A stretch of 64,000 nucleotides of DNA from an uncultured delta proteobacterium (GTDB taxonomy: Bacteria; Desulfobacterota; RBG-13-43-22), in the NCBI GenBank assembly GCA_963711835.1, contig CAVQFQ010000019.1:20134-84133 (forward strand), written 5' to 3'. The stretch's first letter is position 1; each line of letters begins with the position of its first letter. Positions 4,153 to 55,555 of the stretch are shown here, piece after piece. The position numbers were made by a program, and so were the translations under genes. The notes beneath the pieces were generated by a model. It worked only from the letters and a program-made list of their open reading frames with translations, was not told the origin of the DNA and ran no database searches.

Positions 4153-4456
4153 CTTATTAAGGGTCTTACAATAATATTTACCAACAGGGACCGGGGGGTC
4201 TTCTTTTCTGGGGTTGTCCAAAGGGTAACTCATCGCCCTATCCCGGCCCGGACGGCTAAGTAGGTTAGGTGCAGGGCATTCACTCAAGTCCGTTTCGGGC
4301 ATTAGCGTAGGCCTGTCTCTGAATTAGATTCAAATTTTGGCCCGGTAAAGAAGCTTTGGGCTTGAAGGTGGACAACCCAGAAAAGAAGACCCCCCGGTCC
4401 CATTTAATGCAAGCTCCTCAATTTCATGTTAAGACTATGATGAGACCCTTAATAAG
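4153..4456 (-). repeat. Structured dispersed element, family 1, copy A (inner element 4187-4401; outer 14-bp inverted repeat)
   Basis: Terminal IR GGGACCGGGGGGTCTTCTTTTCTGGG(G)TTGTCC; core motifs in reverse orientation (GGGCATTCAC, GTAGGCCT, CGGCCC); outer IR CTTATTAAGGGTCT/AGACCCTTAATAAG. Confidence 0.9.
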
Positions 4457-4482
4457 TCAAAAAAAGGTCTTTCAGGAGCGCT

Positions 4483-4947
4483 ATGTTTTCCATAACCGAA
4501 ATTATTGAACTCGCTGTTCAGATTGAAAAAAACGGGGAAAAATCGTATCGAAGGGCCCAGCAGGCGGCCTCCGATGACGCCTTGAAGGCCATGCTCGGGC
4601 TACTGGCCGAGGAGGAAGGGGACCACCAGCAGTGGTTCAGGGATCTAAAGAACCGGATTATCAGCAAAGCCGTTGATCCCGACCTGGAAGAGATGGCCAG
4701 GGGATTATTTCAAGGCATTCTGGGGGAAAAGGCTTTTGCCCTGGACGAGTTGAATCCGGCTGATCTTTCCGATCTAACGGCCCTGTTGCAGATATCGGCC
4801 GAGTTCGAAAAAGATACGGTTCTTTTTTATGAGATGCTGGAGCCGTTCATAGAAGAGGCTGAGAGCAGGGATCATCTAAAAGCTATTATTGAGGAAGAGA
4901 AAGGCCATATTAGAAGGCTTCAGGAACGCATAAAAAACCTGCCCTGA
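4483..4947 (+). CDS. Ferritin-like/rubrerythrin-family protein
   Basis: 'ELAVQIEKNG..Y', 'LAEEEGDH', 'FEKDTVLFY', 'IIEEEKGH' di-iron ExxH motifs; RBS AGGAG. Confidence 0.9.
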   Translation: MFSITEIIELAVQIEKNGEKSYRRAQQAASDDALKAMLGLLAEEEGDHQQWFRDLKNRIISKAVDPDLEEMARGLFQGILGEKAFALDELNPADLSDLTALLQISAEFEKDTVLFYEMLEPFIEEAESRDHLKAIIEEEKGHIRRLQERIKNLP

Positions 4948-5170
4948 GACCGAAATCCTCCCGCGGGAAAGATCGAGGGGGGTACCCTAAAGAAAAATAG
5001 AGAAAATTATTCTCATAATAAGAAATCCTTTTCCTTTTTGTGGGAAATCGGAAGGCTGAAAAAAACTTTTTTTTTCTTCAAGGAAACCGAAAGACGCCTT
5101 CCTGATAAAATGATCTGAAAATCTTAAGAGTTACAAAGGTTAGGGTCAAGCCCGGCCGTCTATGAGGTTA

Positions 5171-5186
5171 GGGTATAATATTTGCA
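5171..5186 (+). promoter_or_regulatory. Possible sigma54 -24/-12 promoter
   Basis: GGGTATAATATTTGCA has GG-N10-GC spacing. Confidence 0.4.
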
Positions 5187-5232
5187 ATTGTTTTATTGAA
5201 TTAGGTTAAGATCTTCAAAAAAAATCCTTTTC

Positions 5233-5261
5233 TTGACAATCAGGGTTGTATTTTTTATAAA
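5233..5261 (+). promoter_or_regulatory. Sigma70-type promoter upstream of the small ERR/DRR protein
   Basis: TTGACA-17 nt-TATAAA. Confidence 0.65.
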
Positions 5262-5357
5262 GTGGAGAAAGAGGTTTTAAGAAGAGGTATGAGATGAGAG
5301 AGTTAACGCTTCATTCTTACCAACTTACCAAGACGGGGTAGCTAAAGGACATGGCCG

Positions 5358-5606
5358 ATGATGTACTTGAATGGGAAACTCTATAAAAACTTAGGCCCCT
5401 ACCAATTGTTGAAAGACAGCGTTTTTTGGGAGGATTGTATTGTGTACGGCGACTATGTCCTCGAGAAAGTGGCCGAAGGAGAGCGAAGAAAGGCCGATCG
5501 CAGAAAAGTGGGAGGGCAGTGGCAAGGGGGCGATCGTCGGAAATGGGACCGGAGGATCGAATATCAGGCTGCCCAACTAAGGCCGGTAGCCGCTGCCTTA
5601 CTATAA
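5358..5606 (+). CDS. Small hypothetical protein with tandem ERR/DRR (RxxxR) motifs
   Basis: RBS AAAGGA; 'ERRKADRRK...GDRRKWDRR'. Confidence 0.6.
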   Translation: MMYLNGKLYKNLGPYQLLKDSVFWEDCIVYGDYVLEKVAEGERRKADRRKVGGQWQGGDRRKWDRRIEYQAAQLRPVAAALL

Positions 5607-5872
5607 TAAAAGGCCTCTTAGTCCAGAGAACCAGAAACGATGTGTCGCCTCATCATTATCCTCTTGCCGCTTGTTTTTTCCTAACCCGTTACTCTAAAGC
5701 CTGATCACCTGATCCCGGTTTGCCTCAAGGAAGCCCCATTATAAAAAACTACCCCTCCATTGATCAGATTTCCCGACAGGGTAAGCAGAGGGTTCCGGAG
5801 GCGGGGAATCCATCGTCTTCCCCATGCGGTCCAAATCCGACTACCCTAGCCCGATCCGCGCCTGCCCGAATC

Positions 5873-8800
5873 TTAGATCAATTTTTCTATCCTCACGGCG
5901 CAGACTTTCAACTCCGGGATCTTGGCTACCGGATCCAGGGCGGTCTGGGTCAGGGCATTGGCCGCGGCCTCGGCATAGTGGAAGGGAATGAAGATTGTTC
6001 CCCGGGGCGAGCGGTCAGTTATTTTTATCCTGGCTTCTAAAGCCCCCCGCCTGGACAGGACCCGCACCTGTTCCCAGTCCAAAAGTTTCAAGAAAAAGGC
6101 ATCTCCGGGGGAGATTTCGATCAGACATTCCGGGGCCATTTTTTCCAATTCGGGACTCTTCCGGGTCATGGTCCCGGTGTGGTATTGATAGAGCAGACGC
6201 CCGGTGGTCAGCGTCAAAGGGAACTCGGCATCCGTCGGTTCCTGGGGACCTTGGTAGGCAACAGGATGGAACTTTCCTAACCCCCGGCTAAAGCGATCCT
6301 TATGGAGGTAAGTAGTCCCCGGATGATCCAGGGTCGGGCAGGGCCATTGTAGGCCGATCCGGTTGAGGCGGGCATAGGTCATGCCGGCGTAGGAGGGTGT
6401 TACGGTGCGGATCTCTTCAAAAATTTCTTCGGCATTTTTATAAGCCATAGGTAGGCCCATCCGGGCGGCCAAGTCGCTGATGATCTCCCAATCCGGGCGG
6501 GCCTTTCCAAGAGGAGCGATGGCCTGACGGACCCGCTGGACCCTCCGTTCGGTGTTGGTAAAGGTCCCATCCTTCTCGGCAAAAGAAACGCCGGGTAAAA
6601 CGACCTGGGCCAAGCGGGCCGTTTCGGTCAAAAAGATATCCTGAACTACCAGAAAATCCAAGGCCTTCAATGCCTGGAGGACATGGTGGGCATCGGGATC
6701 CGAGAGGACCGGATTCTCTCCAAAAACATATAATCCCCGAACCTCTTTTTTTAAGGCCCCATCAAACATTTCCATCAAGGTCAGGCCGGGCTGATCGGGA
6801 AGATCCCGGACCCCCCAGGCCCTTTCCATTTTTTCCCTGGCCTCCGGATCGCTCACCTTTTGATAGCCCGAAAAAACATCAGGCAGGCCGCCCATATCGC
6901 AGGCCCCCTGGACGTTGTTCTGCCCCCTCAGGGGATTTACTCCGGCCGCCGGGAAGCCTACGTTGCCGCAGAGCATGGCCAGATTGGCCAGGGCCTTGAC
7001 GTTATCGGTCCCGTGGCTGTGCTGGGTAATACCCATGGTGTAGTAAATACCGGCCCGGTCTCCGGCGTACAGGCGGGCAGCTTGGTTCAGATCCTTTTCC
7101 GGGATGCCGCAAATTTTGGAAACGAAATCCGGGGTGAACTGGGCCAGGGATTGCTTCCATTCCTCGAACCCTTCAGTCCTGGACCGGACATATTCCTGGT
7201 CATAAAGGTCCTCATCCAGGATGATTTTCATAAGTCCGTTGGTCCAGGCAATATCTGTTCCCGGACGGGGGTGGAGCCAGAGGGTGGCCAGATCAACCAG
7301 TTCGATTTTTCTGGGATCCACCACAATCAGCTTGGCCCCGTGTTGCTGAACGGCTCGCTTGACGGCCGCCCCGATGATGGGATGGTTTTCAGTGGTATTG
7401 GAGCCGGTAATCAGGAGGACCTTGGCCTGTTCGATCTCGGCTATGGAATTGGTCATGGCCCCACTTCCGAAAGCGGCAGCCAGACCGGCTACCGTGGTGG
7501 AGTGTCAGAGGCGGGCGCAATGGTCTATGTTGTTGGTTTTAAAAACCGCCCGGACCAATTTCTGCATCAGATAGTTTTCTTCATTGGTGGCCCGGGCCGA
7601 GGTCAAGGTCGCCAGGGTATTGGGGCCATAGGTTTCCTGCAGCTTTTGGAAGCGGCCGGCCACCAGATTCAAGGCCTCTTCCCAGGAGGCCTCGCGGAAA
7701 CCATTCCCCTCCCGGATCAGAGGGGTGGTCAGGCGATCCGGGTGTTGGATGAAATCGAATCCAAATCGGCCTTTGACACAGAGATGTCCGAAATTAGGGG
7801 GCACCCGTTCCACCCCATTGACCCGGACAATTTTCTGGCCGGCTTTTTCCAGATAGAGCTGGCAACCTACCCCACAATAGGTGCAGGTGGTCTTGGTCCG
7901 TTCCAGTTGCCAGGGGCCCGGCAGACCCGGCGTCTTTTCAGTTAAGGCCCCGGTGGGACAGTTGGCCAGACAAAGTCCGCAAGAGACGCAGCGTTCGTTG
8001 ATGGTCGCCGAATAGGCCGGAGGCCCGCCTTCGCTTAGGGCCGGCACTTCCGGAAGTTCAAAGGCCTTTTGGATTTGGTAATCCGAACAGCCACGGAGGC
8101 ACCTGCGGCAGGTGATGCACTTGTTCGGGTCGATATGAATGAAGGGATGGTACTCCTTAAGAGGGTGCATCCGCTTCGACCAGACCGGCAGCTTATCGAT
8201 CTCCACTCCGTATTGGACCGAATAAGCCCTTAAACGGCAGTCAAAGAGATCCTGGCAGCCGCAGGAGAGGCAGCGGGAGGCCTCCTGCATGGCTTCTTCG
8301 GCTTTTATGGTGCATTCCACTTCCTCAAAGCTGTTGCGCCTTTTCTCGATCGGGATATGGGGTTGAAGGACCCGGGGTCTTGGGAGAATTCCTTCAAAAT
8401 TGACGGGATCTACTTCAGTCCATTTCCCTTTGCTGATATTGAAAGGTTTTTTCTCCGGATGGATGAATCCCTGGGTCAGAACCTGATGGATGGAAATAGC
8501 CGCTCTCCGACCGTCGGCGATGGCCTGGATAACGGTCTGGGGGCCCCGGAAAAGATCGCCCCCGATAAAAAGATCGGGAATGGAGGTCTGGAGGGTTTGG
8601 GGATCGGCTTTAGGGGTTCCCCATTTAGTCAGGGCCAGATTGATCAATTCCGGATCCTTTTCGAGAAAGGAAAGATCCGCATATTGGCCGATGGCCACTA
8701 CGGCGGTATCGGCTTGTATAACGGTTTCCGACCCGGGGATTGGAAAGGGCCGGGGACGGCCTCCGCTTTCCGATTCACGGAGTTCATTTTGGATATATTC

Positions 8801-9994
8801 CATCCCGGAAAAACGGCCCTCTTGAGAAAGAATCCGGGTGGGAGAAACAAGAAAGTGCATTTTTAGGCCTTCCTGTTCCGCCGCCGCCACTTCTTCGGGA
8901 TGGGCGGTCATTTCATTTGGGGACCGGCGATAGAGCAGGGTCACTTCTTCGGCTCCCAGCCTGAGACAGGTCCTGGCCGCGTCCATGCCGGTATTCCCGT
9001 TACCGATGATCAGGACCCTTTTCCCAATTTCAACAGGATCCTTGGCGGCTATCCGGATAAGCAATTCCAGGGCCGGAATGATGCCGGGCAGGTCTTCACC
9101 GGGAAGCCCCAGGCGGGTGGATTTCCAGCACCCGGTGGCCAATAGGACGGCTTCAAAGCCCTGGCTGCGGAGGCTGCTGAGAGTAATATCGGAGCCGAAG
9201 ACCTGATTGACCCGGACCTCGACTCCCAGGTCCAGGATCTGCTGGATTTCTTTGTCCAAAATGGCGTTGGGTAAACGGTATTCGGGAATGGCATAGCGGA
9301 GCAAGCCCCCCAACTGGGGTTTGGCCTCAAAAATATGGGCGGTATGCCCTTTGAGACGCAGGTAATGGGCGGCTGAAAGGCCTCCGGGTCCTCCGCCGAT
9401 CACGGCGACTTTATGTCCGCTGTCTTTGGCTAACGGAGGTTTGAAAGGAATGTCCTCCAACAGAGCGTAATCGGCCATGAAGCGTTTTAAGGGATTGATG
9501 GCCAGGGGCTGATCTACCCGATGGCGGCGGCAGACCTCTTCGCAGGGATGAGGACAAACCCGGCCGATAACCATGGGAAGAGGATTCCTCTCCTTGATGA
9601 CCTTTAAGGCCTGGCTGAATTCCCCCCGGCTGATATGGGCCAGATAACCCTGGATATCGATCCCGGCCGGGCAGCTCAACTGGCAGGGAGCCAGACAATC
9701 TCCGTAATGTTGTTCCAAAAGGAGTTCCAAAATGGCCCGGCGGGAAGCATGGACCAGAGGGGAGTCGGTCTGGACGACCATCCCTTCCTTTATGGGAGCG
9801 GCGCAGGAGGCGATCAGCCGATCCTCCCCTTCAACCTGAACCACGCAAATGCGGCAGGATTCCTCGGGTTTTAAAAGGGGGTGATGGCAGAAGGTGGGAA
9901 TAAAAATGCCGGCCTCGGTAGCCGCTTCCAGGATGGTTTTTCCGGATGGCGAAGTCACCATTCGTCCATCAATGGACAGGGAAACGTTAGACAT
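5873..9994 (-). CDS. fdhF: Selenocysteine-containing formate dehydrogenase alpha subunit fused with an internal GltD/NfnB-like FAD/NADPH oxidoreductase domain (~1373 aa)
   Basis: ORFs 7505-9994 and 5873-7456 are in frame across TGA 7505-7507, reading '[29 protein letters not shown]'; 2Fe-2S N-terminus, GltD motifs (PCQLSCPA, GRVCPHPCE, GGGPGG, GNGNTG, YRRS), 2x4Fe-4S, CTYCGVGC, 'PLRGQNNVQGACDMG'. Confidence 0.92.
7475..7493 (-). promoter_or_regulatory. Bacterial SECIS hairpin of fdh
   Basis: GGTAGCC-GGTCT-GGCTGCC starts 11 nt after the UGA; same position and similar loop as the E. coli fdhF SECIS. Confidence 0.85.
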
Positions 9995-10064
9995 GGGCGC
10001 TCCTCTTCCTCAATAGGGTTTTCGCGATCAGTAGGTATTACTTTGTGGCATGTAAATTGGATTT

Positions 10065-10093
10065 TTTATAATATGAAAAAGCAATTGAGTCAA
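10065..10093 (-). promoter_or_regulatory. Sigma70-type promoter of fdh
   Basis: TTGACT-17 nt-TATAAA on the minus strand. Confidence 0.55.
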
Positions 10094-10153
10094 TGGCTTT
10101 TCGTGCTCAAAAGCTTTTTGGGCCGAGGCAGGAATTGGAAGGGGTCCGGAATT

Positions 10154-10194
10154 AAAAAGGCCGGATGTCTTTTCGGAAACACCCGGCCTTTTTT
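10154..10194. terminator. Intrinsic, probably bidirectional, terminator after the GcvH-like gene
   Basis: AAAAAGGCCGG..CCGGCCTTTTTT hairpin with A/T tracts on both sides. Confidence 0.8.
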
Positions 10195-10214
10195 AAAAAA
10201 AATAACGGCTAAGC

Positions 10215-11123
10215 TTAGCTGAGAAGGAACTGCCGGACAAAACGGGCCCACTTTTTACCCCGTAAATGGCCGGTAAAATCCTGGCCCGGCATACCCCCGT
10301 CCAGAGCGGTAGACCCTATTTCAGTTTGGATTTGGGAAACTAAGCGGTCTTTTTCATCCACAATCCATTGCTGGGCTTCCTGGCCGAACAGCAGGCTTTT
10401 AAGGTCGTTTTTAAGGGTCAGGGGCTCGACGATAAACAACCAGCCTTCCTCATAAGGTTCTTTATTCACCAGGTCCGGGTGTTTGGCAACCTGAGAATTG
10501 ATATGGGTAATGGTGCCTTCGATAGGGGCCAGGACCGGTACATCCTGTTTTTTTCGTTTGATCCCCAGGCTGGGGGAACCTTGTCCCACTTTCTGCCCCA
10601 CCTTCGGCAGAAGGACTTCCTCAACCTGGCCTACTAATCTCTGGGCAAAATCATCAATCCCTACCCGAACCCGGCCGCCGAATTCGGTCAAGGCCCAACT
10701 GTGGCCGCGATGATAAAAATAATTTTCCGGCTGCTCGAACCCGCCCACCAGAGGGATTTCCTTTAATCTGGGGGAGAGGGTAGGGGGCACCTGATCCTGC
10801 ATCATCTGATCAAAGGAGCATTCCCCGCAGAGAAAGGCATTGGGGCAAATTTTATAACTAATGGCTCCATTCAGCATATAACGGCATTTGCGTTGCGCGG
10901 CCGGCAGGGCCAGAAATTTTTTCATCCATTCCTGGGTCGGCGGTTTATTTTGTTTTACCTGGACCTTACCTGAGGCTTCATCCAGGGCCTTCTTGGCCAT
11001 CCCCTTATCAAAATTGCAGGTCATGCAATTGTAATTGTTGTTGCAGAGCTTATAGGAAACCACACCGGCATCCATCCAGATGCATTTATTTTCAGAAGCC
11101 ATAAAATTCAGTTTTTCTCCCAT
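10215..11123 (-). CDS. GcvH-like protein with two N-terminal Cys-rich repeats; lipoyl-lysine motif not evident
   Basis: 'YHRGHSWA..VRVGIDDFAQRLVG..LPKVG..LAPIEGTI..IN..P.LVN.EPYEEGWLF' preceded by two C-x2-M..C-x5-C-x2-C.FD repeats. Confidence 0.85.
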   Translation of the reverse strand: MGEKLNFMASENKCIWMDAGVVSYKLCNNNYNCMTCNFDKGMAKKALDEASGKVQVKQNKPPTQEWMKKFLALPAAQRKCRYMLNGAISYKICPNAFLCGECSFDQMMQDQVPPTLSPRLKEIPLVGGFEQPENYFYHRGHSWALTEFGGRVRVGIDDFAQRLVGQVEEVLLPKVGQKVGQGSPSLGIKRKKQDVPVLAPIEGTITHINSQVAKHPDLVNKEPYEEGWLFIVEPLTLKNDLKSLLFGQEAQQWIVDEKDRLVSQIQTEIGSTALDGGMPGQDFTGHLRGKKWARFVRQFLLS

Positions 11124-11162
11124 GGTGTCCTCCGGTAAAGGCGTTGTTTTTATGTTAATATA

Positions 11163-11178
11163 AGCAAGTTGAATGCCA
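11163..11178 (-). promoter_or_regulatory. Sigma54 -24/-12 promoter of the GcvH-like gene
   Basis: TGGCATTCAACTTGCT, near-consensus TGGCAC-N5-TTGCW, 40 nt upstream of the ATG. Confidence 0.8.
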
Positions 11179-11261
11179 GAAAAAGATAATATTTTAATTA
11201 CATGAATTTATTATAAAAAATAGAGGCAAAGCCATTCCTGTTTTTTTGGGGGATGGACGGC

Positions 11262-11368
11262 TGTTGATAATATTTACACAGGCAGTAGGGTAATTTAAGA
11301 TAACTGATTGATAATATGTAATTTATTAATATGATGAGATATTAAACAATATGTTTAAAAATTATACA
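11262..11368. promoter_or_regulatory. Two candidate enhancer (bEBP) sites, TGT-N11-ACA
   Basis: TGTTGATAATATTTACA (11262-11278) and TGTTTAAAAATTATACA (11352-11368) in an AT-rich region 85-190 nt upstream of the sigma54 promoter. Confidence 0.5.
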
Positions 11369-11474
11369 GCCATTTGACTCAAAAAACTCTCTTGACCTCT
11401 AAAGAAATCCATATATAAATAAAACCATCATGCCTTTAATGTCCGTATGGTGGGATGGATTAGGGAACTAGGGG

Positions 11475-12182
11475 GTGCTTATGAAATTCAGAGAGGCGTT
11501 GGTTTTGTCATTGGGAATGGTTGTGGCCGCTATGATCTTCGGTTTCTTTTTTTATGAAAGCCGGGACAGCGGTAAAACCGTTAAAATTGTGGGAACGGGG
11601 ACCAGGGGTTTTAATTCCGACATCATAAAGTGGCGCCTGGCCATAGGCCGCTATGCCTCGCCTACGGAAGTCACCAGCGGTTATGTCAAGGTAGCCAAAG
11701 ATGTCCAAGCCCTGTCTGAAGACCTGATAAAGAAGGGGCTGGCTAAAGAGGAAATGATCATCCAGTCCGTCCTTACCCAACCGAGCTACGGCAACAGCGG
11801 TAATGTTACCGGCTATACCATTCAGCAGGGCATAACCCTTACCTCCCGGGATATGTCCGCCGTTGAGAAGCTGGCTTTTAATCCGGGAGAAATAGTGCGG
11901 GAAAGCATGATCCTTCTGAATTCCAACGTGGAATATTATTTTTCAGACCTGGGCGGGATCAAGAAGGAATTGATTGCTGCTGCCGTTAAAGATGCCAGGG
12001 CCAGGGCCGAGGTGATTGCGAAGAATTCCGGAACCCGGATAAAAGGGATCCAGTCGGCCCGGGTTGGGGTTTTCCAAATTACCGAGCCCTATTCGGCTGA
12101 AGTCACCGATACCGGCATCTATAATGTGAACACCAAAAGGAAAGATGTTACGGTGACGGTTCATGCCGTCTTTAATTTATAA
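11475..12182 (+). CDS. SIMPL (DUF541) domain protein
   Basis: N-terminal TM helix, 'V.G.G..SD', 'A.KDARARAE.IA...G', 'GVFQIT', 'K.V.V.V...F'. Confidence 0.85.
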   Translation: MLMKFREALVLSLGMVVAAMIFGFFFYESRDSGKTVKIVGTGTRGFNSDIIKWRLAIGRYASPTEVTSGYVKVAKDVQALSEDLIKKGLAKEEMIIQSVLTQPSYGNSGNVTGYTIQQGITLTSRDMSAVEKLAFNPGEIVRESMILLNSNVEYYFSDLGGIKKELIAAAVKDARARAEVIAKNSGTRIKGIQSARVGVFQITEPYSAEVTDTGIYNVNTKRKDVTVTVHAVFNL

Positions 12183-12183
12183 A

Positions 12184-13125: not shown

Positions 13126-16238
<3,113 letters not shown>

Positions 16239-20090: not shown

Positions 20091-20138
20091 TTCCCCAAAA
20101 GGATCCCGGGTAAATAGAAATCCATCCCTAAAGCCGCG

Positions 20139-24045: not shown

Positions 24046-24124
24046 TTCCCGGTTGCCTTCTCCCCCCGGCCACGTCCATCTCGAACCTTTCCTGCCCCAA
24101 CCCTTTTTTTTAATCCTTTGGTGT

Positions 24125-24425
24125 CGTTCAAAAGTTGTGGCATTATATTTCTGATACCCGATGGAAAGGGACCGGGGGTCTTGATTTCAAGGATTGTCCG
24201 CCAAAACGCTGGCAACCCTGAACCCGGGCAGGAAGTTTGTAAGTGGGTTTAAAAACAGGCCTACACCAAAGCGATTTATCGGCTTAGGTGAATGCCCGGC
24301 TCTTAACCAACTTAGAAATTCGGGCCGGGTTGGGGCTACGGATTACCTTTGCGGACAATCCTTGAAATCAAGACCCCCGGTCCCTAAGTCAGACGATAAT
24401 ACGCCAGTGCCATAACTTTTGAACG
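24125..24425 (+). repeat. Structured dispersed element, family 1, copy B (inner element 24167-24385)
   Basis: Perfect 35-bp IR 24167-24201/24351-24385; outer IR CGTTCAAAAGTTGTGGCA/TGCCATAACTTTTGAACG; all core motifs present. Confidence 0.93.
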
Positions 24426-24489
24426 TTATTAATCCGTTAAGGAAGTGGTACTTAGCCAGACCTTTTAACGGCCTTTCCTGATTTATGAT

Positions 24490-44709: not shown

Positions 44710-44793
44710 AATTCCGGATTACGGTTCCGGCGTATTGCGCTTGACATTTATAGGGAATAGTGAAAAAAATTTTATGAGTAATGCCATTCATCG

Positions 44794-45112
44794 GTATCGT
44801 TCAAAAGTTGTGGCATTATATTTTTGATACACGATAGAAGGGGACCGGGGGTCTTGATTTCAAGGTTGTCCACCATAAACTCCTCACCTTGAAATCCCGC
44901 TTTTAGCGGGGCTGGAAGGGTGACGGTAATGCCTTAAGCAGGCCTTCACCAAAGCTGTTTGTCCGGTTGGGTGAATGCCCGGCTCTAAACCACCCTTAGA
45001 AATCAGGGCCGGATTGGTGGGAAGGATCACCCTTTGGACAAGCCTTGAAATCAAGACCCCCGGTCCCCCAGTCAGGAAATAATGCGCCAATGCCAAAATT
45101 TTTTAACGATAC
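44794..45112 (+). repeat. Structured dispersed element, family 1, copy C (inner element 44840-45068)
   Basis: IR GGGGACCGGGGGTCTTGATTTCAAGG/CCTTGAAATCAAGACCCCCGGTCCCC; outer IR GTATCGTTCAAAAG../..TTTTAACGATAC; core motifs present. Confidence 0.92.
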
Positions 45113-45138
45113 TCATTCATTAGGATAAGGAATAAAAC

Positions 45139-47733: not shown

Positions 47734-47757
47734 AGAATTAGGATAAACAAAGGCATT

Positions 47758-47968
47758 ATCGGAAATTCGAAATCCGAAACAAATCCTAATGATCAAAACT
47801 CAAAATTCAAAACGTTTGGTTTTGATAATTGAAATTTGAAAATTTGTGCTTGTTTCGGATTTCATGCTTCGAATTTCGAGTTTAAGAAACAGGGGAGGTT
47901 GACTACATTTTCTAACTCGGCATCCGGCATCAGACACCAAGCATCGGATATCCCCGTCACTTGTCACA
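47758..47968. repeat. Heptamer-repeat palindromic tract (TTCGAAA/TTTCGRA, GCATCCG) between converging secDF and cytochrome b
   Basis: attcgaaatccgaaacaaa...gtttcggatttc..ttcgaatttcga. Confidence 0.6.
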
Positions 47969-47970
47969 CA

Positions 47971-48609
47971 CTAAAGCGGTTTTCCCGCCAAGCCGTCCTT
48001 TCTCACCCTCCAGAAATGATAAAAAATCAACAGGATCATCAGCCCGGGCAGGATCAGGCAGTGGAAGAGGTAAAAACGGATAGCCGTCAGGGCGCCTATC
48101 TCCGGACCACCCACTAATAAAATATAGAGAGGCTTGCCCAACAAGGGGATTTCACGAACCAGTTGGGTGGCCACCTGCAGGGCGGCAAAGGTATCGGCAT
48201 CCCAACGCAGTACATAGCCGGTAAAATCAATCAACAGGGTTAACAGGAAGAGACAAAGACCCACCCACCAGTTGAGCTGCCGCGGGGGCCGGTAGGCCCG
48301 GTAATAAAAGACCCGGATCATGTGGAGCATAAGGGCCAGGACCATAAGTTGACCGGACCAGTAGTGAAAAGTGCGCAGGAAGCCCCCGTAGGGAACCAGA
48401 TAGGTGATCCGGGTGATGCTGGGATAGGCCCGGTCCTGAACAGGCAGATAATAAAAAGCCAATAGAATGCCGCTTAAAATCAGCAGGAAAAAAAGAAAGA
48501 AAGTGGATCCTCCCAAACAGAAGGTGTAGCTGAAGCGGATGCTCTCTGGCGGGAGCTTCAAAGGATGCAGGTGCTTCCAGAAGCTGTCTTCGAGGTATCC
48601 TTTTTTCAT
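47971..48609 (-). CDS. Cytochrome b N-terminal subunit (b6/PetB-like, ExtP-like)
   Basis: Four heme-b histidines ('H.W...M....HM.RV', 'FH....P.......H') and heme-ci motif FCLGG. Confidence 0.9.
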   Translation of the reverse strand: MKKGYLEDSFWKHLHPLKLPPESIRFSYTFCLGGSTFFLFFLLILSGILLAFYYLPVQDRAYPSITRITYLVPYGGFLRTFHYWSGQLMVLALMLHMIRVFYYRAYRPPRQLNWWVGLCLFLLTLLIDFTGYVLRWDADTFAALQVATQLVREIPLLGKPLYILLVGGPEIGALTAIRFYLFHCLILPGLMILLIFYHFWRVRKDGLAGKPL

Positions 48610-49079
48610 AAATTAACCCGAAAAGCCTGATCCACTATTCGGCCGGTATCGGCCCAGAGCGTTTTTTTCCCGTCCAGCCAAAGGAAGGGCCGGGAGAGGG
48701 GACGCGTTGCCGGTCCCTTGGTCGGGAAACCCTGGAGGTCGAAGCGGCTGCCGTGACAGGGGCAGATCAATAGCTTGCTGGTTTGATCCAGCGCCGGCCG
48801 GCAGCCTAGATGGGTGCAGATGTTGGAAAGGGCATACCAGCCTCGTTCATCTTGAATCAACCAGAGGCCCTGTGCAAAATGCCAAGGGGTTTTTGATTGG
48901 GCCAGGGCTTGGGAACCGATTACCGGAAATTTGGCGGGCCTGTCCGGCATGGCCGGAGAAAAAAGAAAGGAAACCCCCTGCTTCAATAGGAGATAAACCG
49001 ATCCCGCCCCGGCCAGCAGGCCCAGCGTTAAAAAGATCCTTCGGGAAAATCGGGAATCAAAGGGGGGAAGAAATCTCAA
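48606..49079 (-). CDS. Rieske [2Fe-2S] protein with Tat signal
   Basis: SRRIFL; CTHLGC and CPCHGSRFD. Confidence 0.92.
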   Translation of the reverse strand: MRFLPPFDSRFSRRIFLTLGLLAGAGSVYLLLKQGVSFLFSPAMPDRPAKFPVIGSQALAQSKTPWHFAQGLWLIQDERGWYALSNICTHLGCRPALDQTSKLLICPCHGSRFDLQGFPTKGPATRPLSRPFLWLDGKKTLWADTGRIVDQAFRVNL

Positions 49080-49273
49080 AGTTGACTCTGTTCAGAATTT
49101 CTTTTTTTAGGTATAATTTCCTTAAAAGTAAATCCCGGCTCTGCCGGAGGAATCCCTGAGGTTGACAAATCTCCCTCAATCCCCCTTCCCAAAGGGGAAA
49201 GTTTCCCCTCCCTTTGAAAAAGGCAGGTCGGGAAGGATTTACAAGGCCTTTTGTTTTTTTAAAATATTATTCC

Positions 49274-49651
49274 ATGGAAAACAAGGAAGAAAGAATAACC
49301 CGCGATCAGCTCCTGTTCAAGGAATTCATCGCCCTTCTGGTTTTATTGTTTTTCTGCTGCTGGCTGGCGGTCTGGGTTCCCGCCCCTTTGTCCCAGCCGG
49401 GAGGAGAGATGCTACCTCCCGGGGTGACGGTTCAGGCCCCCTGGATCTTCGCCGGCCTGCAGACCTTGCTGCTCTATTTCCATCCCCTTGTGGCAGGTCT
49501 TGTCTTTCCCCTGGTCGTACTCCTCTTCCTGGTCCTATTGCCCCTGGAGGCCAAAACCCGACTCCACCCCGCCCTGACGCGAATTCTTTTCGCCCTCCTC
49601 CTACTGGGAGGAATCGCCCTTACCCTTTATGGTCTTTTTCGAATAAAATGA
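49274..49651 (+). CDS. Cytochrome b C-terminal subunit-IV-like membrane protein (ExtQ-like)
   Basis: Three TM helices, 'PAPL', 'APWIF.GLQ.LL' at the PEWY-equivalent position. Confidence 0.75.
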   Translation: MENKEERITRDQLLFKEFIALLVLLFFCCWLAVWVPAPLSQPGGEMLPPGVTVQAPWIFAGLQTLLLYFHPLVAGLVFPLVVLLFLVLLPLEAKTRLHPALTRILFALLLLGGIALTLYGLFRIK

Positions 49652-49659
49652 TCGGAATA

Positions 49660-49979
49660 GTCCCAAAGTTACGTGAATCTCAAACCGATGGGGTCGCTTC
49701 TTAAAATATTAAAACACCCCAAAGGGCTTCAGAGGCCTTGATTCCAAGGATTGTCCGCCAAAACGCCAGCCGCCTGAACCCGGGCAGGAAGTTCATAATG
49801 GGGTTTAGAAACAGGCCAACACCAAAGCTATTTATCGTCTTGGGTGAATGCCCGGCTCCCAACCAACTTAGAAATTAGGGCCGGGTTGGGGCTACGGATT
49901 ACCTTTTGGACAACCTTGAAATCAAGACCCCCGAAGCCCTCTATGAATGGATAGCTTAAAAATCACGTAACGTTGGGAC
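49660..49979 (+). repeat. Structured dispersed element, family 1, copy D (inner element 49723-49940)
   Basis: IR AGGGCTTC..TTGTCC/GGACAA..GAAGCCCT; outer IR GTCCCAAAGTTACGTGA/TCACGTAACGTTGGGAC; interior very similar to copy B. Confidence 0.92.
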
Positions 49980-50016
49980 AAACTCAAATGATCGGGTATT
50001 TGTTTTTTTGACTGGC

Positions 50017-51933
50017 TCAATCTACCGCCCGGTACAAGCCCTTTTCCATAAAGTACTTTGTTGCATATCCTTTATAATTATTTGATTTATTTAGTAATAA
50101 TCTTAATTCGCTTTTATTGTAGGGGCGGGCGCCCGGGCGGGTTTGGGTCTGCAGGGGCCTTCCATCCAAATCAACCAGGGCCTCCCATTCAAAATCAATA
50201 GAAAGGCCGTCTTTCTTGGGCTGGGTCAAGGGGACGGAAAAGCGAAGAAGGTTCTTTTTATTTCCTGCGGGTAGACGGTTTCCCAGTCCAAGGGCCCGGG
50301 GATTTTCGTGACAGCCCTCACAACGCAGCGTTTCCCTTCTGATAGTATGGGGGGCGTAGGGATTGAATCCCAAACCGGGTTTCCCATCCCTGGTTCTGGG
50401 AATGAGGCTGTCTAAGCGCACCTTTCCTCTCTCATCCACATGACTGATGACAAATTGATTAAGGGGCCTGAAGACGCTGGTTTTCCCCCGCTCGTTAAGG
50501 CCGAAGATGGGGGATTCAAAACGACGGTAACTGTACCCGCCATACCAAATGCCAGGCTTGACCGAGCCATCAAGGTAATCCCGGGCCGCAGGAGGGGTCC
50601 ACTGCTCGCTTTTTAAGGGCAGGTTTTGGCGCAGCAGGGCTTGTACCTGAGGATCGTTCTGAATCCAAAGAGGAGCCCACTTTTCATAATCAGCCCGGTC
50701 CTCCCGGATCAGGTGGAAGCCGAAATCCTGATAGGACCAGAGGGCGTGGCAGCTATGGCACTCCATGTTGCTGATATGTTCAGGGATGCGGTGGGAGACT
50801 GGAAAGGGTTTCTGGGAGAGTTGTGGGATGCGATGTTTTCTGCCGTCCAGTTTGGAATAAAGAAAAATTTTTCCAGCTTCTTTCCTGATATGTTTTAATG
50901 GATTACCGGCAGAATCTAAAATCACTTCTATAGTGTTAGGGACTTTAATCCTCTCTGTTCGGGGACCTTTCCGGGGTGTCCCGTGGCAGTCCCGGCAGCG
51001 GATGGTTACCTGCTCCGGGGCATGAGAAACCAATTTCCCGCTGCCCATGGCATCCCGGGAGCCATGACAGTCAATACAACCCAGGCCCTTTTCGAAATGG
51101 ACATCGGCCGTCAAGTTCCTGGGATCGAATCCGTGAATTAAAGAAGCCTGCTCCCCGTCCTTTGAAAAAAAGCGGTAACTTTCCTCATAGTCCCGTTCCG
51201 CCAGACCCACAAAGTCCATGCCCACCCGGTGCCCATTGTGGCAGGTCAAACACTGTTGGGTGGGGATGGCCCGGGTAAGGCCGTGCTGAAGGGGGAAGCC
51301 CCTTTTTTGTTTTCCCGGATTTCCCTTGATCTGGTCCATCCAGCCGGCCATAGCTTGATCCTTGCTCCGGCTGAGGCCGTCAGGCCCATAGGGCATATGG
51401 CAGGCGGCGCAGCCCTCGGCCCGCCAGTCCCCATAGCGGCCTTCCCCGGTGGTTTGGAGATGGCAGCGCAGACAGCGGCGCCGTAAAAGATCATCCACCA
51501 GTTGTCCGGTCTGGCCATAGCGGGGCAGGCCCGGATAAGGATCTATCGAGCGGTTCAGGTACTGGAGATTCGGTTTTTCCTGAGCGCCCCAGAGATAACG
51601 GGTCTGATTGATTTCACCGGCTGAGGTGGCCATGATGGATCGGGTAACCCGGGCCACTTGGGCCTCATGGCAGGGCAGGCAGCGGATCGAAGCCTGATTT
51701 AAGGCCGAAGGGTTGGCCACCAGGCCCTGGTGGGCCTGGTCCTTTTCCTTTTCATCGGGTTTCCCCTGGTGACAGCGCCGGCAGGGAAAGGTGTGATTCG
51801 GTCCGGGCGATTCAATGCCCTGATGGCAGGACAGGCAGCCTTCTTTGGTCGGCCGGGCCTGGTCAGCCGCACCTCCCATGAGGCCGAGGAGGCTGATCAT
51901 CATTAATCCAGACAACAGAAAAGGCCTGGTCAT
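50017..51933 (-). CDS. Periplasmic multiheme cytochrome c (10 CxxCH), ExtO/ExtM-like
   Basis: Signal peptide; 10 CxxCH motifs counted; paralog of the neighbouring gene ('DVHFEKGLGCIDCH', 'I.C.DCHG'). Confidence 0.9.
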   Translation of the reverse strand: MTRPFLLSGLMMISLLGLMGGAADQARPTKEGCLSCHQGIESPGPNHTFPCRRCHQGKPDEKEKDQAHQGLVANPSALNQASIRCLPCHEAQVARVTRSIMATSAGEINQTRYLWGAQEKPNLQYLNRSIDPYPGLPRYGQTGQLVDDLLRRRCLRCHLQTTGEGRYGDWRAEGCAACHMPYGPDGLSRSKDQAMAGWMDQIKGNPGKQKRGFPLQHGLTRAIPTQQCLTCHNGHRVGMDFVGLAERDYEESYRFFSKDGEQASLIHGFDPRNLTADVHFEKGLGCIDCHGSRDAMGSGKLVSHAPEQVTIRCRDCHGTPRKGPRTERIKVPNTIEVILDSAGNPLKHIRKEAGKIFLYSKLDGRKHRIPQLSQKPFPVSHRIPEHISNMECHSCHALWSYQDFGFHLIREDRADYEKWAPLWIQNDPQVQALLRQNLPLKSEQWTPPAARDYLDGSVKPGIWYGGYSYRRFESPIFGLNERGKTSVFRPLNQFVISHVDERGKVRLDSLIPRTRDGKPGLGFNPYAPHTIRRETLRCEGCHENPRALGLGNRLPAGNKKNLLRFSVPLTQPKKDGLSIDFEWEALVDLDGRPLQTQTRPGARPYNKSELRLLLNKSNNYKGYATKYFMEKGLYRAVD

Positions 51934-54026
51934 CGGGGAAGCCCTTTCAAAAAACGGTTGACGATCTGGAGATGCTTGGGGCTGCGGTCAAGGATCAGGC
52001 TTTTTTCAAAGTTCCGGTAAATGGGATCCTGATAGGAATCATGGCAGGGCAGGCAGGGCGTCAGGCGAAGGATTCGATTCAGTTCCGCCTCATTGAAAGG
52101 GCGCGCATCCGGACGTGAGGCGGATTGAAGGGGCCGGCCCTCGGGGGTGCTTAAGGACTCCCAGGAATAAGGAAAAACCTGTTCACCTTTATGAGGGGAA
52201 AGGTGCCTATCGGCAAAGCGACTTTTTCCTGAAATCAGTAGCCCGCTGCCCAAACCCAGCAATTTAGGATTTCCGTGGCAGTCCTGGCAGGGGCGGACTT
52301 CTTTCCGGGTGGAGTGGGGATTGATGGGACCGGCCACTATTCCGGTAAAGCCAGTCCGCTGGTGCACGGCCCGATCCCATCCCGGGAGGGGCTGGTTCCG
52401 GGCATCAAGCAGGGTTACCAAGACCTGACATCCCGGCATAAAGGGGGAGACCCGGCCCCGCTGATTGATGCCCAGGGGCGGGTCTTCAAAACGGTAATAA
52501 TCGCGGGTCTCCTGCCAGCGGCCGGGGGATTGGACCCGGGCCTGGGCATCCAATTGGTTCTCCCCGTTCTTGCGATAGTCGTGACAGCCGTAACACTGGG
52601 GGGCCCAGCGGGAGTGGCAGGAGAAGCACTCCATCCGATCGGAGCCATGCCCGGGAAACCGATGCGCTCCCGGCTGTCGGGTAATGATCTTAAGCGGATG
52701 CCGGCGGCCGTCCACCTTGCTATAGAGCACCCACCCGGGGGATTCCTTCCGGATATTAACCAGGGTATGGCCTCCGGAGGATCGAAGCAGTTCATCCCCC
52801 ACCTTCAAGGGCGGGGCCTTTCCAAAGGCCGAAGCCCATAGGGCGGGGTCTTCTTCGGACTGGATCCGATAGGTTTTCGGAGCTTCCTTTTCGGTTCCAT
52901 GACAATCGCGGCAACGGATCTTCACTTGTTGAAACATACGGGAATAAATTCGGCCGTCCCCCATAATTTCTCCGGCCGTATGACAGTCGATGCAGTGCAT
53001 CCCTTTTTCAAAGTGGATATCCGGGGTCAGATGCTGGACGAACCGGCCGCCGCTTAAACGGTTGGGATTCATCCGGCCTTGTTGATAAGGAGTTCCGTAC
53101 TGATCCGATTCCATCAGGCCGCTGAAGGTCAGGCCGATCCGGCCGCTGCGGTTATGGCAACGCAGGCATTGGGCCGTAGGGATGGCTGCCGTGAGGTGAT
53201 GTCTTTTTCCATAACCCTCTTTGGTTCGGGACAGGGCGCGGTCCCGTCCTTCATAGGTGCCGGTCTCGTTCCGCGCCACATGGCAGGAGGAACAACCGCC
53301 GCCGTGGGCGCCTGGTCCGGATGGCCTTTCGTTATTCAGGTGGCAGCGGGAACAGAACTTTCGCCACTGATCATCGGCGACCTGGCCGGAAACGGTCAGG
53401 GTGTTTCCCCGTTCATCCCGGCTGATGACGGCGCCGCTTCCATCTTTGGGCAGGCTCAGGTGATTAAAAAAAGGAATGGTCTTTAGATCCTTATCGGGGC
53501 CCTGAATGCCAACGGAACCGTAAAGGGCCTCAGGGGTGAGTTGGGCGCCCCAGGTATAGCGCAAGCCGGCAATGACGCCGGCCATTGTGGCCATCAGACT
53601 TCGGGGAGAGGTCTGAGCCGGATTTTTTTCCACCTGGCTATGCCCGGCATGGCAGAGGGTTCCGTCCGGCGCCCTTCGGCCGCAGGTTTTATGAATGACT
53701 CGAAAGTCCGACGGATTCCTTCCGCCCCACAACCCTTGATGGGCCAGGTCTTTGTCCAGGGCCAGGCCGTTTCCGCCATGACAGATGGTGCAGCCGAAAC
53801 TTTGAACAGGATGAGAGCCGGAGATTTCTTCAAGACCGAAATGGCAGGTCAGGCAACGCTCCCGGATATTCCATTGGGCCAGGTAAACTTCTTTGACTTT
53901 CAGGTCATGATGGGAGGATTTCTGGATCCTTTTCCATTCCCGATTGGCTTCCTGATGCCGGATGCCAAGCAGGGTGGCCAGGAGAATCACGGTGGCTGCA
54001 AAAAAGAGAAAGGGCTTTTTCTGCAT
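51930..54026 (-). CDS. Membrane-anchored multiheme cytochrome c (11 CxxCH plus one C-x9-CH), ExtM-like
   Basis: N-terminal TM helix; 11 CxxCH motifs counted; CGRRAPDGTLCH aligns with heme 3 of the paralog. Confidence 0.9.
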   Translation of the reverse strand: MQKKPFLFFAATVILLATLLGIRHQEANREWKRIQKSSHHDLKVKEVYLAQWNIRERCLTCHFGLEEISGSHPVQSFGCTICHGGNGLALDKDLAHQGLWGGRNPSDFRVIHKTCGRRAPDGTLCHAGHSQVEKNPAQTSPRSLMATMAGVIAGLRYTWGAQLTPEALYGSVGIQGPDKDLKTIPFFNHLSLPKDGSGAVISRDERGNTLTVSGQVADDQWRKFCSRCHLNNERPSGPGAHGGGCSSCHVARNETGTYEGRDRALSRTKEGYGKRHHLTAAIPTAQCLRCHNRSGRIGLTFSGLMESDQYGTPYQQGRMNPNRLSGGRFVQHLTPDIHFEKGMHCIDCHTAGEIMGDGRIYSRMFQQVKIRCRDCHGTEKEAPKTYRIQSEEDPALWASAFGKAPPLKVGDELLRSSGGHTLVNIRKESPGWVLYSKVDGRRHPLKIITRQPGAHRFPGHGSDRMECFSCHSRWAPQCYGCHDYRKNGENQLDAQARVQSPGRWQETRDYYRFEDPPLGINQRGRVSPFMPGCQVLVTLLDARNQPLPGWDRAVHQRTGFTGIVAGPINPHSTRKEVRPCQDCHGNPKLLGLGSGLLISGKSRFADRHLSPHKGEQVFPYSWESLSTPEGRPLQSASRPDARPFNEAELNRILRLTPCLPCHDSYQDPIYRNFEKSLILDRSPKHLQIVNRFLKGLPR

Positions 54027-54130
54027 GGATAGGCATTGTAATTTGAAATGGGAGTATTGTCAAAGCCTCAAGAAATGATTATTGTAATAAAATAGATTTT
54101 TTATCAAAAAAGGAGAATCGGAGGAAATTG

Positions 54131-55288
54131 ATGAGTGAGACGAAGTCATTCGATTTTGAACAAGGACCCATTCGTCCCCCCAGTGAGGCCCGGAGCTTAT
54201 TGCTGCGGGTGACCCGGAATTGTTCCTGGAACAAGTGCCTCTTTTGCCCGGTCTATAAAGGCCAGACCTTTTCCCGGCGGAGCACGGAAGAGATCAAAGG
54301 AGACATCCGGACTATAAAAAATATCATCGAGGATCTAAAAGGGATTTCCTGGAAATTGGGACGCAGCGGTCAAATCGATGATGCCGTCATAACCGAAGTG
54401 TTCCAGCAACCTTCTTACAGCCAGGCCTACCGGAATGTGGCCGCCTGGATGTATTATAAGGAATACAATGTCTTTCTTCAGGACGGCAACAATCTGGTCC
54501 TTCCAACGGCCGAGTTGGTCGCGATTCTCGAATTTCTGCGCCGTGAAATTCCTCAGGTACGGCGCATCACCTCCTATGCCCGGGCCAAGACCGCCGGGCG
54601 GAAAACGGTGGCGGAATTGACCGCCATCCGGAAAGCGGGTTTGGATCGGATCCATATCGGTTTGGAAAGCGGTTCGGATGCCGTTTTGAAGCTGATGCAG
54701 AAAGGGGTAACCGCCGCCGAGCATATCGAGGCCGGCCAAAAAGTGAAACAGGCCGGCATGGCCCTGTCCGAATATGTCATGCCGGGACTGGGGGGAAAGA
54801 CCTTGTGGCAGGACCATGCCCTGGAAACGGCCCGGGTCTTAAATGCCGTGAATCCTGATTTTATCCGTCTCCGATCCTTGCGGGTTCCCCCCCGGGTGCC
54901 CCTGCATCAATGGGTGCAGGACGGCCGTTTTGTGCTGTTAAACGATGATGAAACCGTTGAGGAAATCCGCTTGATGGTAGATCATCTGGAGGGCATTACC
55001 AGCACCCTGACCTCCGACCATATCATGAACCTTCTGGAAGATGTCAGCGGGACCCTGCCTCAGGACATGGGCCGTATCCTGGCCGCTCTGGATGCCTACC
55101 TGAATCTTTCTCCGGAAGAAAAATTGATCTATCGCTTCGGCCGTCGCGGCGGCGCCTACCGTTCGGTGCAGGACATGAAAGACCTGGTCTTGCGGCGAAA
55201 AATTAAAAAAGCGATTGAAGAAGTCCGGCAGACCTATCCCCAAGGAGTCGAGTCGTTTATCACGGAATTGGTAGATCAATATATTTAG
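54131..55288 (+). CDS. Radical SAM protein
   Basis: 'IRPPSEA.SLLLRVTRNCSWNKCLFC..YK', 'HIGLESGSD', 'MPGLGG', 'SDH..N'. Confidence 0.9.
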   Translation: MSETKSFDFEQGPIRPPSEARSLLLRVTRNCSWNKCLFCPVYKGQTFSRRSTEEIKGDIRTIKNIIEDLKGISWKLGRSGQIDDAVITEVFQQPSYSQAYRNVAAWMYYKEYNVFLQDGNNLVLPTAELVAILEFLRREIPQVRRITSYARAKTAGRKTVAELTAIRKAGLDRIHIGLESGSDAVLKLMQKGVTAAEHIEAGQKVKQAGMALSEYVMPGLGGKTLWQDHALETARVLNAVNPDFIRLRSLRVPPRVPLHQWVQDGRFVLLNDDETVEEIRLMVDHLEGITSTLTSDHIMNLLEDVSGTLPQDMGRILAALDAYLNLSPEEKLIYRFGRRGGAYRSVQDMKDLVLRRKIKKAIEEVRQTYPQGVESFITELVDQYI

Positions 55289-55337
55289 TGGCTTATACAG
55301 CCTATTTTAAGAATGTATCTCTATCTTTCCAATATCA

Positions 55338-55555
55338 GGTATAGGGGGGTCTTATTTTTTTAAGTTATCCACCCCAAAGCCATAAACTTCTTTGCCGGGC
55401 CAAACTGCGAACCCTATTTTATCAGCAAGCCTACACCCAAGCTGGAAATAAGCTTTGGTGAATGCCCTACCTAACGTAAACTTAATTATTCGGGCCGAAT
55501 TAGGGGCTCTTCGTCACCCTTTGGACAACTTAAAAAAATAAGACCCCCCTACACC
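55338..55555 (+). repeat. Structured dispersed element, family 1, copy E
   Basis: 33-bp IR GGTATAGGGGGGTCTTATTTTTTTAAGTTATCC/GGACAACTTAAAAAAATAAGACCCCCCTACACC; core motifs present; interior closest to copy A. Confidence 0.9.

Follow-up and report, generated by a model that had tools for sequence, protein, structure and literature searches.

The 64,000-nucleotide window analyzed here, positions 20,134 to 84,133 of contig CAVQFQ010000019.1 in the genome assembly GCA_963711835.1 of an uncultured delta proteobacterium (GTDB lineage Desulfobacterota, RBG-13-43-22), contains five dispersed copies (A to E) of an intergenic element. On balance we think it probable that these copies represent a high-copy, non-coding foldback repeat of the kind known as MITEs (miniature inverted-repeat transposable elements), likely moved in trans by a transposase, and that the centre of the element is likely kept for the benefit of the element itself and not as an RNA gene of the host. 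The units carry target duplications, are polymorphic among strains, occur in high copy number and are spread through an order of bacteria. Their inner part, which we call the core, is shared and exchanged among outer shells of different types, is inverted within them and is lost from them by symmetric deletion.

The initial annotation, made from the letters of the window alone, had reported five inner copies of a possible new structured RNA or mobile element, and all five were present where it had placed them and could be aligned over 252 columns with a mean column identity of 73%. The ends it had assigned to the element did not hold up: in an alignment of the copies with their flanks, similarity extended well past them, and each copy proved to be the inner ~200 bp of a longer foldback shell of one of at least four types (T1 to T4), giving whole units of 296-332 bp. 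Copy A, read directly, occupies 4157-4452 on the minus strand (shell T3, 296 bp; ends TTAAGGGTCT.. and ..GAGACCCTTAA) between a TA at 4155-4156 and another at 4453-4454, and its inner core and closing stem lie at 4187-4401 on the same strand (stem arms GGGGGGTCTTCTTTTCTGGG.. and ..CCCAGAAAAGAAGACCCCCC; covariance-model match at 4192-4396, 206 bits). The other four copies and their cores are on the plus strand. Copy B, at 24120-24430 (contig C19:44253-44563; shell T1, 311 bp; ends GGTGTCGTTCAAAA.. and ..TTTTGAACGTTATT), is bordered by an 8-bp target duplication, AATCCTTT at 24112-24119 and AATCCGTT at 24431-24438, and has its core at 24167-24385. Copy C, at 44793-45113 (shell T1, 321 bp), is bordered in the same manner by CATTCATC (44785-44792) and CATTCATT (45114-45121), and its core, at 44840-45068, carries at the CCGGG motif the insertion of an extra small hairpin, CCCGCTTTTAGCGGG. 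The duplication is perfect in copy D, at 49654-49985 (shell T2, 332 bp; ends GGAATAGTCCCAAAGTTACGTGA.. and ..TCACGTAACGTTGGGACAAACTC), where AAATGATC (A then AATGATC) stands at both 49646-49653 and 49986-49993, and where alignment and a covariance-model match place the core at 49723-49940. Copy E has a degenerate T4 shell whose ends, at ~55285 and 55606, are approximate and were read by eye against other T4 copies; its core is at 55338-55555 by alignment and covariance model, with the closing stem GGGGGGTCTTATTTTTTTAAG.. and ..CTTAAAAAAATAAGACCCCCC. We agree with the earlier reader that there is no credible open reading frame (ORF) in these copies, as the only candidate for a small ORF in the core (GTG AAT GCC..) is not conserved, being stopped in copy C, and 1-nt indels separate the copies.

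Which sequences, then, are the true ends? The T1 shells of copies B and C have inverted ends GGTATCGTTCAAAAGTT, the T2 shell of copy D has ends GGGATAGTCCCAAAGTTACGTGAT or GAGTTTGTCCC.. (the T2 end is also given as GGGATAGTCCCAAAGTT), the T3 shell of copy A has ends TTAAGGGTCTCA and the ends of the T4 shell of copy E, CTAACCAAAGAT.. and ..AAGAATCTAA, are asymmetric; in two other genera there is a fifth type, CTTCGCCCTTTTGGG. A blind offset scan for direct repeats, performed for each shell family, gave a single sharp signal in T1 and in T2, an AT-rich 8-bp duplication directly outside the shell ends. At least seven of the eight positions matched in 26 of 33 T1 copies and in 32 of 47 T2 copies, all eight matched in 14 and 22 of them, respectively, and at any other offset no copy of either family reached seven of eight. 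The T3 units have TA flanks within a TTATTAA context (22 pairs, the dinucleotide being repeated in 16 of these at the best offset), and in the 34 T4 units the flanks are CTAA-like and the ends not clearly inverted. The shells thus resemble the ends of more than one type of transposon, firmly so for the 8-bp class and more weakly for T3 and T4. The initial annotation had set the element apart from ordinary MITEs on the grounds that its ends vary while its middle is fixed, and this contrast fails because the wrong ends were used: the element really ends in the inverted repeats of the shell, and these are MITE-like, being conserved within each shell family and accompanied by 8-bp duplications. 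More than ten half elements end at the G-run of the stem, often just ahead of a gene start. Those at C4:124939, C5:147397, C17:213072 and C6:49833 of the source assembly (G000), among others, consist of one shell arm up to the G-run followed by unrelated DNA, with a start codon often 6-30 nt beyond, so that the G-run sits at the position of a ribosome-binding site. Orphan shell ends that we had considered as ends of insertion sequences (ISs) are truncated half elements of this kind.

The earlier expectation of many more copies genome-wide was borne out. An nhmmer profile of the five copies, run against the source assembly (3.9 Mb in 28 contigs, 89% complete, 6.4% contamination), gave 297 matches that resolve into 146 loci, a number well in excess of chance, 105 of them full length, 12 interrupted by ~50 inserted nt close to profile position 170, and 29 partial, a few loci being counted twice because some contigs are strain duplicates of others (e.g., C27 of part of C17). 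The contig pairs C27/C17, C20/C15, C24/C5, C1/C21, C23/C21 and C9/C11 are partial duplicates with 91-99% identity, that is, strain variants binned together.

Copy C illustrates mobility between strains. The comparison of empty and filled sites that had been suggested at the outset found its site empty in contigs of three of four sediment DNA runs (X1, X2 and X4): in these contigs, whose divergence from the window is ~3%, 44790 is separated from 45135 by 8 other letters, with 56-255 nt fitting on each side, and the fourth run, X3, has a matching loose end at this site. Copy C and its duplication are therefore absent from related strains and constitute an insertion polymorphism, although the empty site is not letter-perfect, because the short intergenic stretch itself also differs between strains. 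One X3 contig joins 55323 to 55558, and so lacks the core of copy E, and other metagenome contigs join the two arms of the copy C stem on opposite strands, as expected if cores are inverted elsewhere. A second palindromic repeat in the window, AT-rich and located at 47763-47880 (..AAATTCGAAATCCGAAACAA....TTGTTTCGGATTTCATGCTTCGAATTTCGAG), has a summed depth of 46-492 relative to ~15 nearby in the four sediment DNA runs, with contigs again joining on opposite strands.

The element also varies in size. The 12 genome copies with a ~50-nt insertion include C17:171969-172244 and C22:34852-35128, and copies in other metagenome-assembled genomes (MAGs; L052, L073, L080, L089 and L090) have insertions of ~95-190 nt at the tip of an interior hairpin, H3. 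At C10:53705-55868 an IS of 2.1 kb lies inside the extra small hairpin of a C-type core; it has a 451-aa DDE_Tnp_1-type ORF, a 219-aa ORF, ends AGAGATTTTAAAGG and the 9-bp duplication GCTTTTAGC. With its own ends and a duplication of 9 bp it is an unrelated IS, and we rejected it as the parent element. Assembly repeats of at least 450 bp, also considered as possible ISs, were strain-duplicate contigs, EF-Tu, an ATPase gene and an acyl-CoA dehydrogenase.

How widely is the element distributed? The covariance model proposed by the earlier reader was built (206 positions, 34 pairs) and detected the element in 19 of the 21 genomes of the order, which here comprises one family with four genera; at least ~100 matches were scored in 5 of the 21, among at most 116 candidates per genome. 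In a sample of the phylum the element was found in 5 of 151 genomes, all of that one family, and the 146 genomes from 74 other families gave none. Of the 48 stretches that matched an exact core pattern in 185,579 species genomes, 34 belong to one MAG labeled Pseudomonadota, six to Deltaproteobacteria bacterium RBG_13_43_22, five to a Deltaproteobacteria MAG from groundwater and one to a Thermodesulfobacteriota MAG, and two are from Anaerolineae and Thermomonas. The last two were not confirmed by the profile, and by our own estimate ~3 chance matches are expected. Plasmid and phage collections contained no matches to the element, the one pattern match in a viral contig not being confirmed by the model.

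The element is unusually modular, with one and the same core occupying the centre of symmetry in four or more types of shell that differ in their ends and flanks. When the interiors of 99 copies were clustered and their shells typed, core cluster 2 was found in 30 T2-bearing shells and in 8 T1 shells, copy B among them, and the T1 shells held three core clusters (3, 8 and 20 copies), with T3 and T4 shells mostly keeping core clusters of their own. That the core of copy B groups with the cores of T2 shells and not with other T1 cores points to exchange of the core as a module between shells. The T1 and T2 families have the outer 19 nt of the stem in common (GGGGGTCTTGATTTCAAGG), and this exchange could therefore be explained by recombination in the stem alone. 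The core has also been flipped: with its orientation relative to the asymmetric shell arms counted by eye from the listing, T2 shells divide ~23 to 8 and T4 shells ~7 to 7, and at least three T3 and at least two T1 cores are flipped. Lastly, core-less shells exist in all four types, and because each of them retains a remnant of the stem (G5..C5, a partial or shortened palindrome) we regard them as symmetric central deletions and not as pristine targets. Three T2 shells of 120-121 bp have one common deletion junction but are at different loci with their own duplications; core-less T2 shells have thus spread, and the core is not needed for T2 movement, although such spreading core-less forms are few beside the core-bearing copies.

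The closing inverted repeat (29-35 bp) differs between copies while its pairing is kept, as the initial annotation had stressed. RNAalifold found compensatory changes in 25 of 66 pairs among the five copies, and an alignment of 77 distinct copies from several genomes to the model gave 98.5% and 97.1% pairing for the two helices of the closing stem, with 21 of 25 pairs changed on both sides and all controls far below. The interior behaves differently. Beyond the closing stem, RNAalifold on 41 diverse copies from several genomes recovered no more than a hairpin of two pairs and an invariant GGCC/GGCC. In the interior hairpin H3 (CACC..GGTG), pairing in the 77 copies reaches 86% in helix 3, where 2 of 4 pairs have changed on both sides, and 70.5% in helix 4, and the changes are mostly one-sided. 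G.U pairs seemed to exceed A.C mismatches in the closing stem (103 to 55 in raw counts), but the excess comes from a few shared positions and disappears once shared ancestry is allowed for (20 to 19 rare events). A mutual-information scan of the genome copies was dominated by subfamily structure.

As for the core that had been called invariant, its ordered motifs are real but its invariance is not: conservation is confined to blocks, and pairwise identity among the 99 genome copies averages 72% with a minimum of 52%. The four most conserved motifs, CCGGGCC, CAGGCC, GCCCTGC and GGGCCGG, are GC-rich, are kept even in the most distant genera and form two imperfect inverted pairs around H3, so that the core can be viewed as a long palindrome's tip that has become degenerate and asymmetric. 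Within subfamilies, letters that differ from the consensus amount to 3.4% (170/5063) in interior columns conserved between subfamilies versus 8.4% (616/7337) in variable ones. For singleton substitutions in gap-free columns the difference is slight, 1.18% (57/4843) versus 1.72% (112/6515; p 0.019), from which it follows that conservation acts mostly on the lineages that spread; individual resident copies are under weak constraint at most.

How might such an element move and evolve? We propose that a DDE-type enzyme making 8-bp staggered cuts would move the T1 and T2 shells in trans. The closing stem common to the families (19-33 bp) may serve as the recombination substrate through which cores are swapped and flipped, and extrusion of the long palindrome as a DNA hairpin in vivo could give rise to the central deletions. 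The conserved asymmetric blocks of the core would then be a cis-acting site that favors spread or retention of the element and is recognized by a protein in the form of DNA or single-stranded DNA.

Several observations weigh against this reading. The first concerns the mobilizing enzyme. IS6-type transposase (Pfam DDE_Tnp_IS240) was found in none of 21 genomes, although control genomes responded, IS1 transposase was over the cut-off in none of 21, IS256 transposase was in none of 5 and ISL3 transposase was not in the one genome searched. IS1595 genes are present in four of five genomes (this assembly not among the four), IS4/5-type genes in five of five and IS630 genes in two of five, and shell ends do not border any of the loci of these three types that we fetched. 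Large numbers of T2 ends are confined to this genome (105 matches) and one relative (29), where they always form MITE-sized pairs or lie at contig ends. The exact T2 end is present in 11 metagenome loci, six of which are complete MITEs and five of which are cut by a contig end or internally deleted, and no longer T2-bounded element is among the 11. The earlier remark that no transposase lies nearby can thus be extended, a parent IS with matching ends not being found in the 89%-complete assembly, its relatives or these metagenome loci. Multi-copy IS elements are often missing from incomplete assemblies of this kind. Secondly, the T3 (TA or TTAA) and T4 (CTAA-like) flanks are less securely defined than the 8-bp duplications. 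Thirdly, simple recombination does not explain why shells of different types all have the core exactly at their symmetry centre. Fourthly, hairpin H3 is more stable on the plus strand of the core in 33 of 40 diverse copies, and among 95 unique segments the plus strand is ahead in 66 and the minus strand in 29, with 106 and 47 G.U pairs, respectively, a trend that is the same with DNA parameters. This asymmetry is real, if due in part to one position at which a constant G faces A, C or U, and it fits a strand-specific, single-stranded form of the element, either RNA or single-stranded DNA. To these must be added that contigs of two metatranscriptome runs hold the element and that the slight deficit of singletons in conserved blocks could reflect some constraint on individual copies.

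Could the inner ~200-bp unit be an element in its own right? In the alternative that survives best, though we judge it unlikely, this unit is a separate, non-autonomous element of the kind of REPINs, doublets of repetitive extragenic palindromic (REP) sequences, moved as single-stranded DNA by an HUH/Y1 enzyme and landing with no duplication in the hairpin tips of several unrelated palindromic MITEs, which would then have taken it with them. In favor of this, the core occupies the precise centre of symmetry in four or more shells whose ends differ, the core's own flanks are inverted and not direct, so that it has no duplication of its own, and the conserved irregularities of the hairpin together with the plus-strand bias of H3 fit a single-stranded substrate. 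Candidate enzymes are also at hand: Y1 (IS200-like) domain matches were found in all five genomes tested (12 in this genome and 7, 8, 18 and 13 in the others), and the Y1 proteins of this genome are ~330 aa and resemble REP-associated tyrosine transposases (RAYTs), one of them scoring 52.6 bits with Pfam Y1_Tnp and 67.8 bits with the NCBIfam model for REP-associated tyrosine transposase, which is under the cut-off of 80 of that model. However, the 12 Y1 matches are distant from the elements (median 18.7 kb to the nearest one versus 10.4 kb for random points), and the intact RAYT-like genes are bracketed by their own ~25-nt inverted repeat starting GGGGACGT.., which is unlike the shell ends. 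Nor is there a single pristine shell, every core-less one having stem remnants, no core was found alone without a shell, and the one documented exchange, that of T2-type cores into T1 shells, needs only recombination within the common 19-nt stem segment.

The GGGGACGT.. repeats are themselves dispersed, with ~35 such ends in the genome, among them a short palindromic derivative at C5:130589 that lacks a gene. Loci of RAYT-like paralogs include an 85-aa fragment in the window at 61113-61295 (plus strand), C12:141793-142119 and 10 other places in the source assembly, and L163:883-1863 (minus strand).

The second alternative, which we consider quite unlikely, is that the host keeps the core as a structured non-coding RNA (a gene or else an element acting in cis) and that the MITE shells are mere vehicles. 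Its asymmetric blocks are conserved across four genera, with singleton changes slightly rarer in them. Folded as RNA, the whole unit of copy D forms one rod-like hairpin of -120.2 kcal/mol that is far better folded than shuffled sequences (z -4.96), and H3 folds better than shuffles too (z -2.6), in addition to its preference for the plus strand in 33 of 40 copies. Against this, the element has no orientation bias towards flanking genes. On a crude ORF map (3279 ORFs, 82% coding), in which eight element midpoints fall inside ORFs, 116 loci have neighbors on both sides, and relative to the core strand 35 of these are co-directional, 36 antisense, 29 divergent and 16 convergent, the background intervals being 1220, 1122, 450 and 459, respectively; the core, moreover, is flipped within its shells. 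RNAalifold brings out no interior consensus helix besides the invariant GGCC/GGCC, helix 4 of H3 is paired in only 70.5% with changes mostly one-sided or unpaired, and a second interior hairpin looked for upstream of CAGGCC gave no signal (z -0.1). Copies are often deleted or truncated, 41 of the 146 loci not being full length. The presence of the element in contigs of two metatranscriptome runs carries little weight in this respect, as its summed depth relative to the flanks in the RNA libraries (~210 versus 11, and 114 versus 0-7) resembles that in DNA runs (177 versus 6.5, and 249 versus 15), and these contigs are without information on strand, ends or level.

Searches of Rfam agree with the earlier opinion that this is not a known Rfam family. 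No family reached the gathering score anywhere in the window, copy B had no matches at E up to 10, and 18 further copies had weak sub-threshold matches only, to microRNA (miRNA)-precursor hairpin models for one palindromised copy and to single long non-coding or small nucleolar RNA models for three. In the locus L104 (C25:33940-34460), positions 209-304, H3 has become a perfect 30-nt palindrome (-22.6 kcal/mol) with weak matches to Rfam miRNA-precursor models, a state that fits arm-to-arm copying at the DNA level. An origin from tRNA or tmRNA was rejected, ARAGORN finding none in 16 loci, as were sigma-54 or sigma-70 promoter motifs in the shells and stem, whose spacing does not fit, and an integration host factor (IHF) site in the core, which does not fit either, both of these being judged by eye only. 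For the readings of the initial annotation as an RNA, ribozyme or guide there is consequently little support; its further suggestion, a substrate for an enzyme acting in trans, may hold. The covariation on which they were founded stands, but it resides in the closing stem; genes nearby have no consistent orientation, cores are flipped, the interior helix predicted by RNAalifold is reduced to the invariant GGCC/GGCC and covariation in H3 is weak. We conclude that the evidence is mostly against the core as an RNA and that a host RNA gene is poorly supported.

We regard as equally improbable the more elaborate proposal in which the ~200-bp centre is an independent, hairpin-tip-seeking passenger, either REPIN-like single-stranded DNA or a structured RNA, that is read by a RAYT-like Y1 protein and resides in at least three mechanistically unrelated MITE families throughout the order. 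Very unlikely, finally, is that the core is a domesticated DNA site of use to the host at many loci, recognized for example by an order-specific protein of the nucleoid, insulator or recombination kind: it persists order-wide at tens to more than 100 copies, its primary sequence is conserved in blocks with the four GC-rich motifs kept in the most distant genera, and it is enriched between divergent genes (29/116 versus 450/3251 background intervals), but copy number varies from 0 to more than 100 among related genomes, sites are polymorphic among strains, deletion and truncation are frequent, divergent intergenic regions are longer and AT-rich, in line with the target preference, and the analysis turned up no candidate for the binding protein.

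What would a MITE-type foldback repeat with an exchangeable centre mean more generally? It would be a clear example of a modular bacterial repeat in which one centre is common to, swapped among and inverted within shells that move by different chemistries. Covarying stems around a fixed core can arise in DNA palindromes without an RNA gene, which is a caution for screens for structured RNAs. If the core is specifically read, its natural variants, which number more than 100 per genome in 19 genomes, could be used to define its recognition. In practical terms, the elements account for nearly 1% of these genomes, interrupt metagenome assemblies and mark strain-level differences in an uncultured sediment lineage.

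Several known systems resemble the element in part. The general works on MITEs and REPINs that we found do not have it among the elements they cover, the sequence itself not having been searched for in papers. In the parts of the cited papers that describe them, REPs are 20-40 bp in length and REPINs are REP doublets (PMC3116915, PMC3337134, PMC5581495, bioRxiv 10.1101/2021.07.10.451892), and a RAYT gene, with its own REPs on both sides, is usually present as a single copy (PMC5581495). To the extent of those descriptions, our element is similar to a REPIN-RAYT system in being a palindromic, hairpin-forming, non-coding repeat with high copy number, long vertical persistence and Y1 relatives in the same genomes. 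It is dissimilar in that its units are ~300 bp with 8-bp duplications and in that the RAYT-like genes are many, are located away from the elements and are flanked by other repeats.

Another partial likeness is to the IS6/IS26 family, for which the relevant section of one paper gives the terminal inverted repeat consensus GGTTCTGTTGCAAA and an 8-bp duplication and lists MITEBth2 and MITEHarch3 (PMC6807381). The 8-bp duplication is the same, and the T1 ends GGTATCGTTCAAAA match 9 of the 14 consensus positions and the T2 ends GGGATAGTCCCAAA match 8 of 14, in both cases including G1, G2 and G7. In contrast, consensus G10 is not kept, and IS6-type transposase is in none of the 21 genomes. The same section notes that GGnnnTG ends occur in IS1 too (PMC6807381). 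The resemblance of the T1 and T2 ends to IS6/IS26 could be generic, and we take it as a lead and not as a placement.

Bacterial MITEs are described, in the portions of three reviews devoted to them, as non-autonomous elements derived from ISs (PMC10969869, PMC3184786, PMC11602168). By that description our units have the defining features of MITEs except for a parent IS with matching ends, and they lack those of REP/REPIN-RAYT systems and of Rfam families. They are small, non-coding, mostly intergenic and multi-copy, have inverted-repeat ends and target duplications, fold into long hairpins and would depend on a transposase supplied in trans. They differ from MITEs in that the parent IS was not found in the genomes searched, in that the family fills an order (19 of 21 genomes) and in that one ~200-bp centre is common to shells with different ends and flank types, among which it has been both swapped and flipped.

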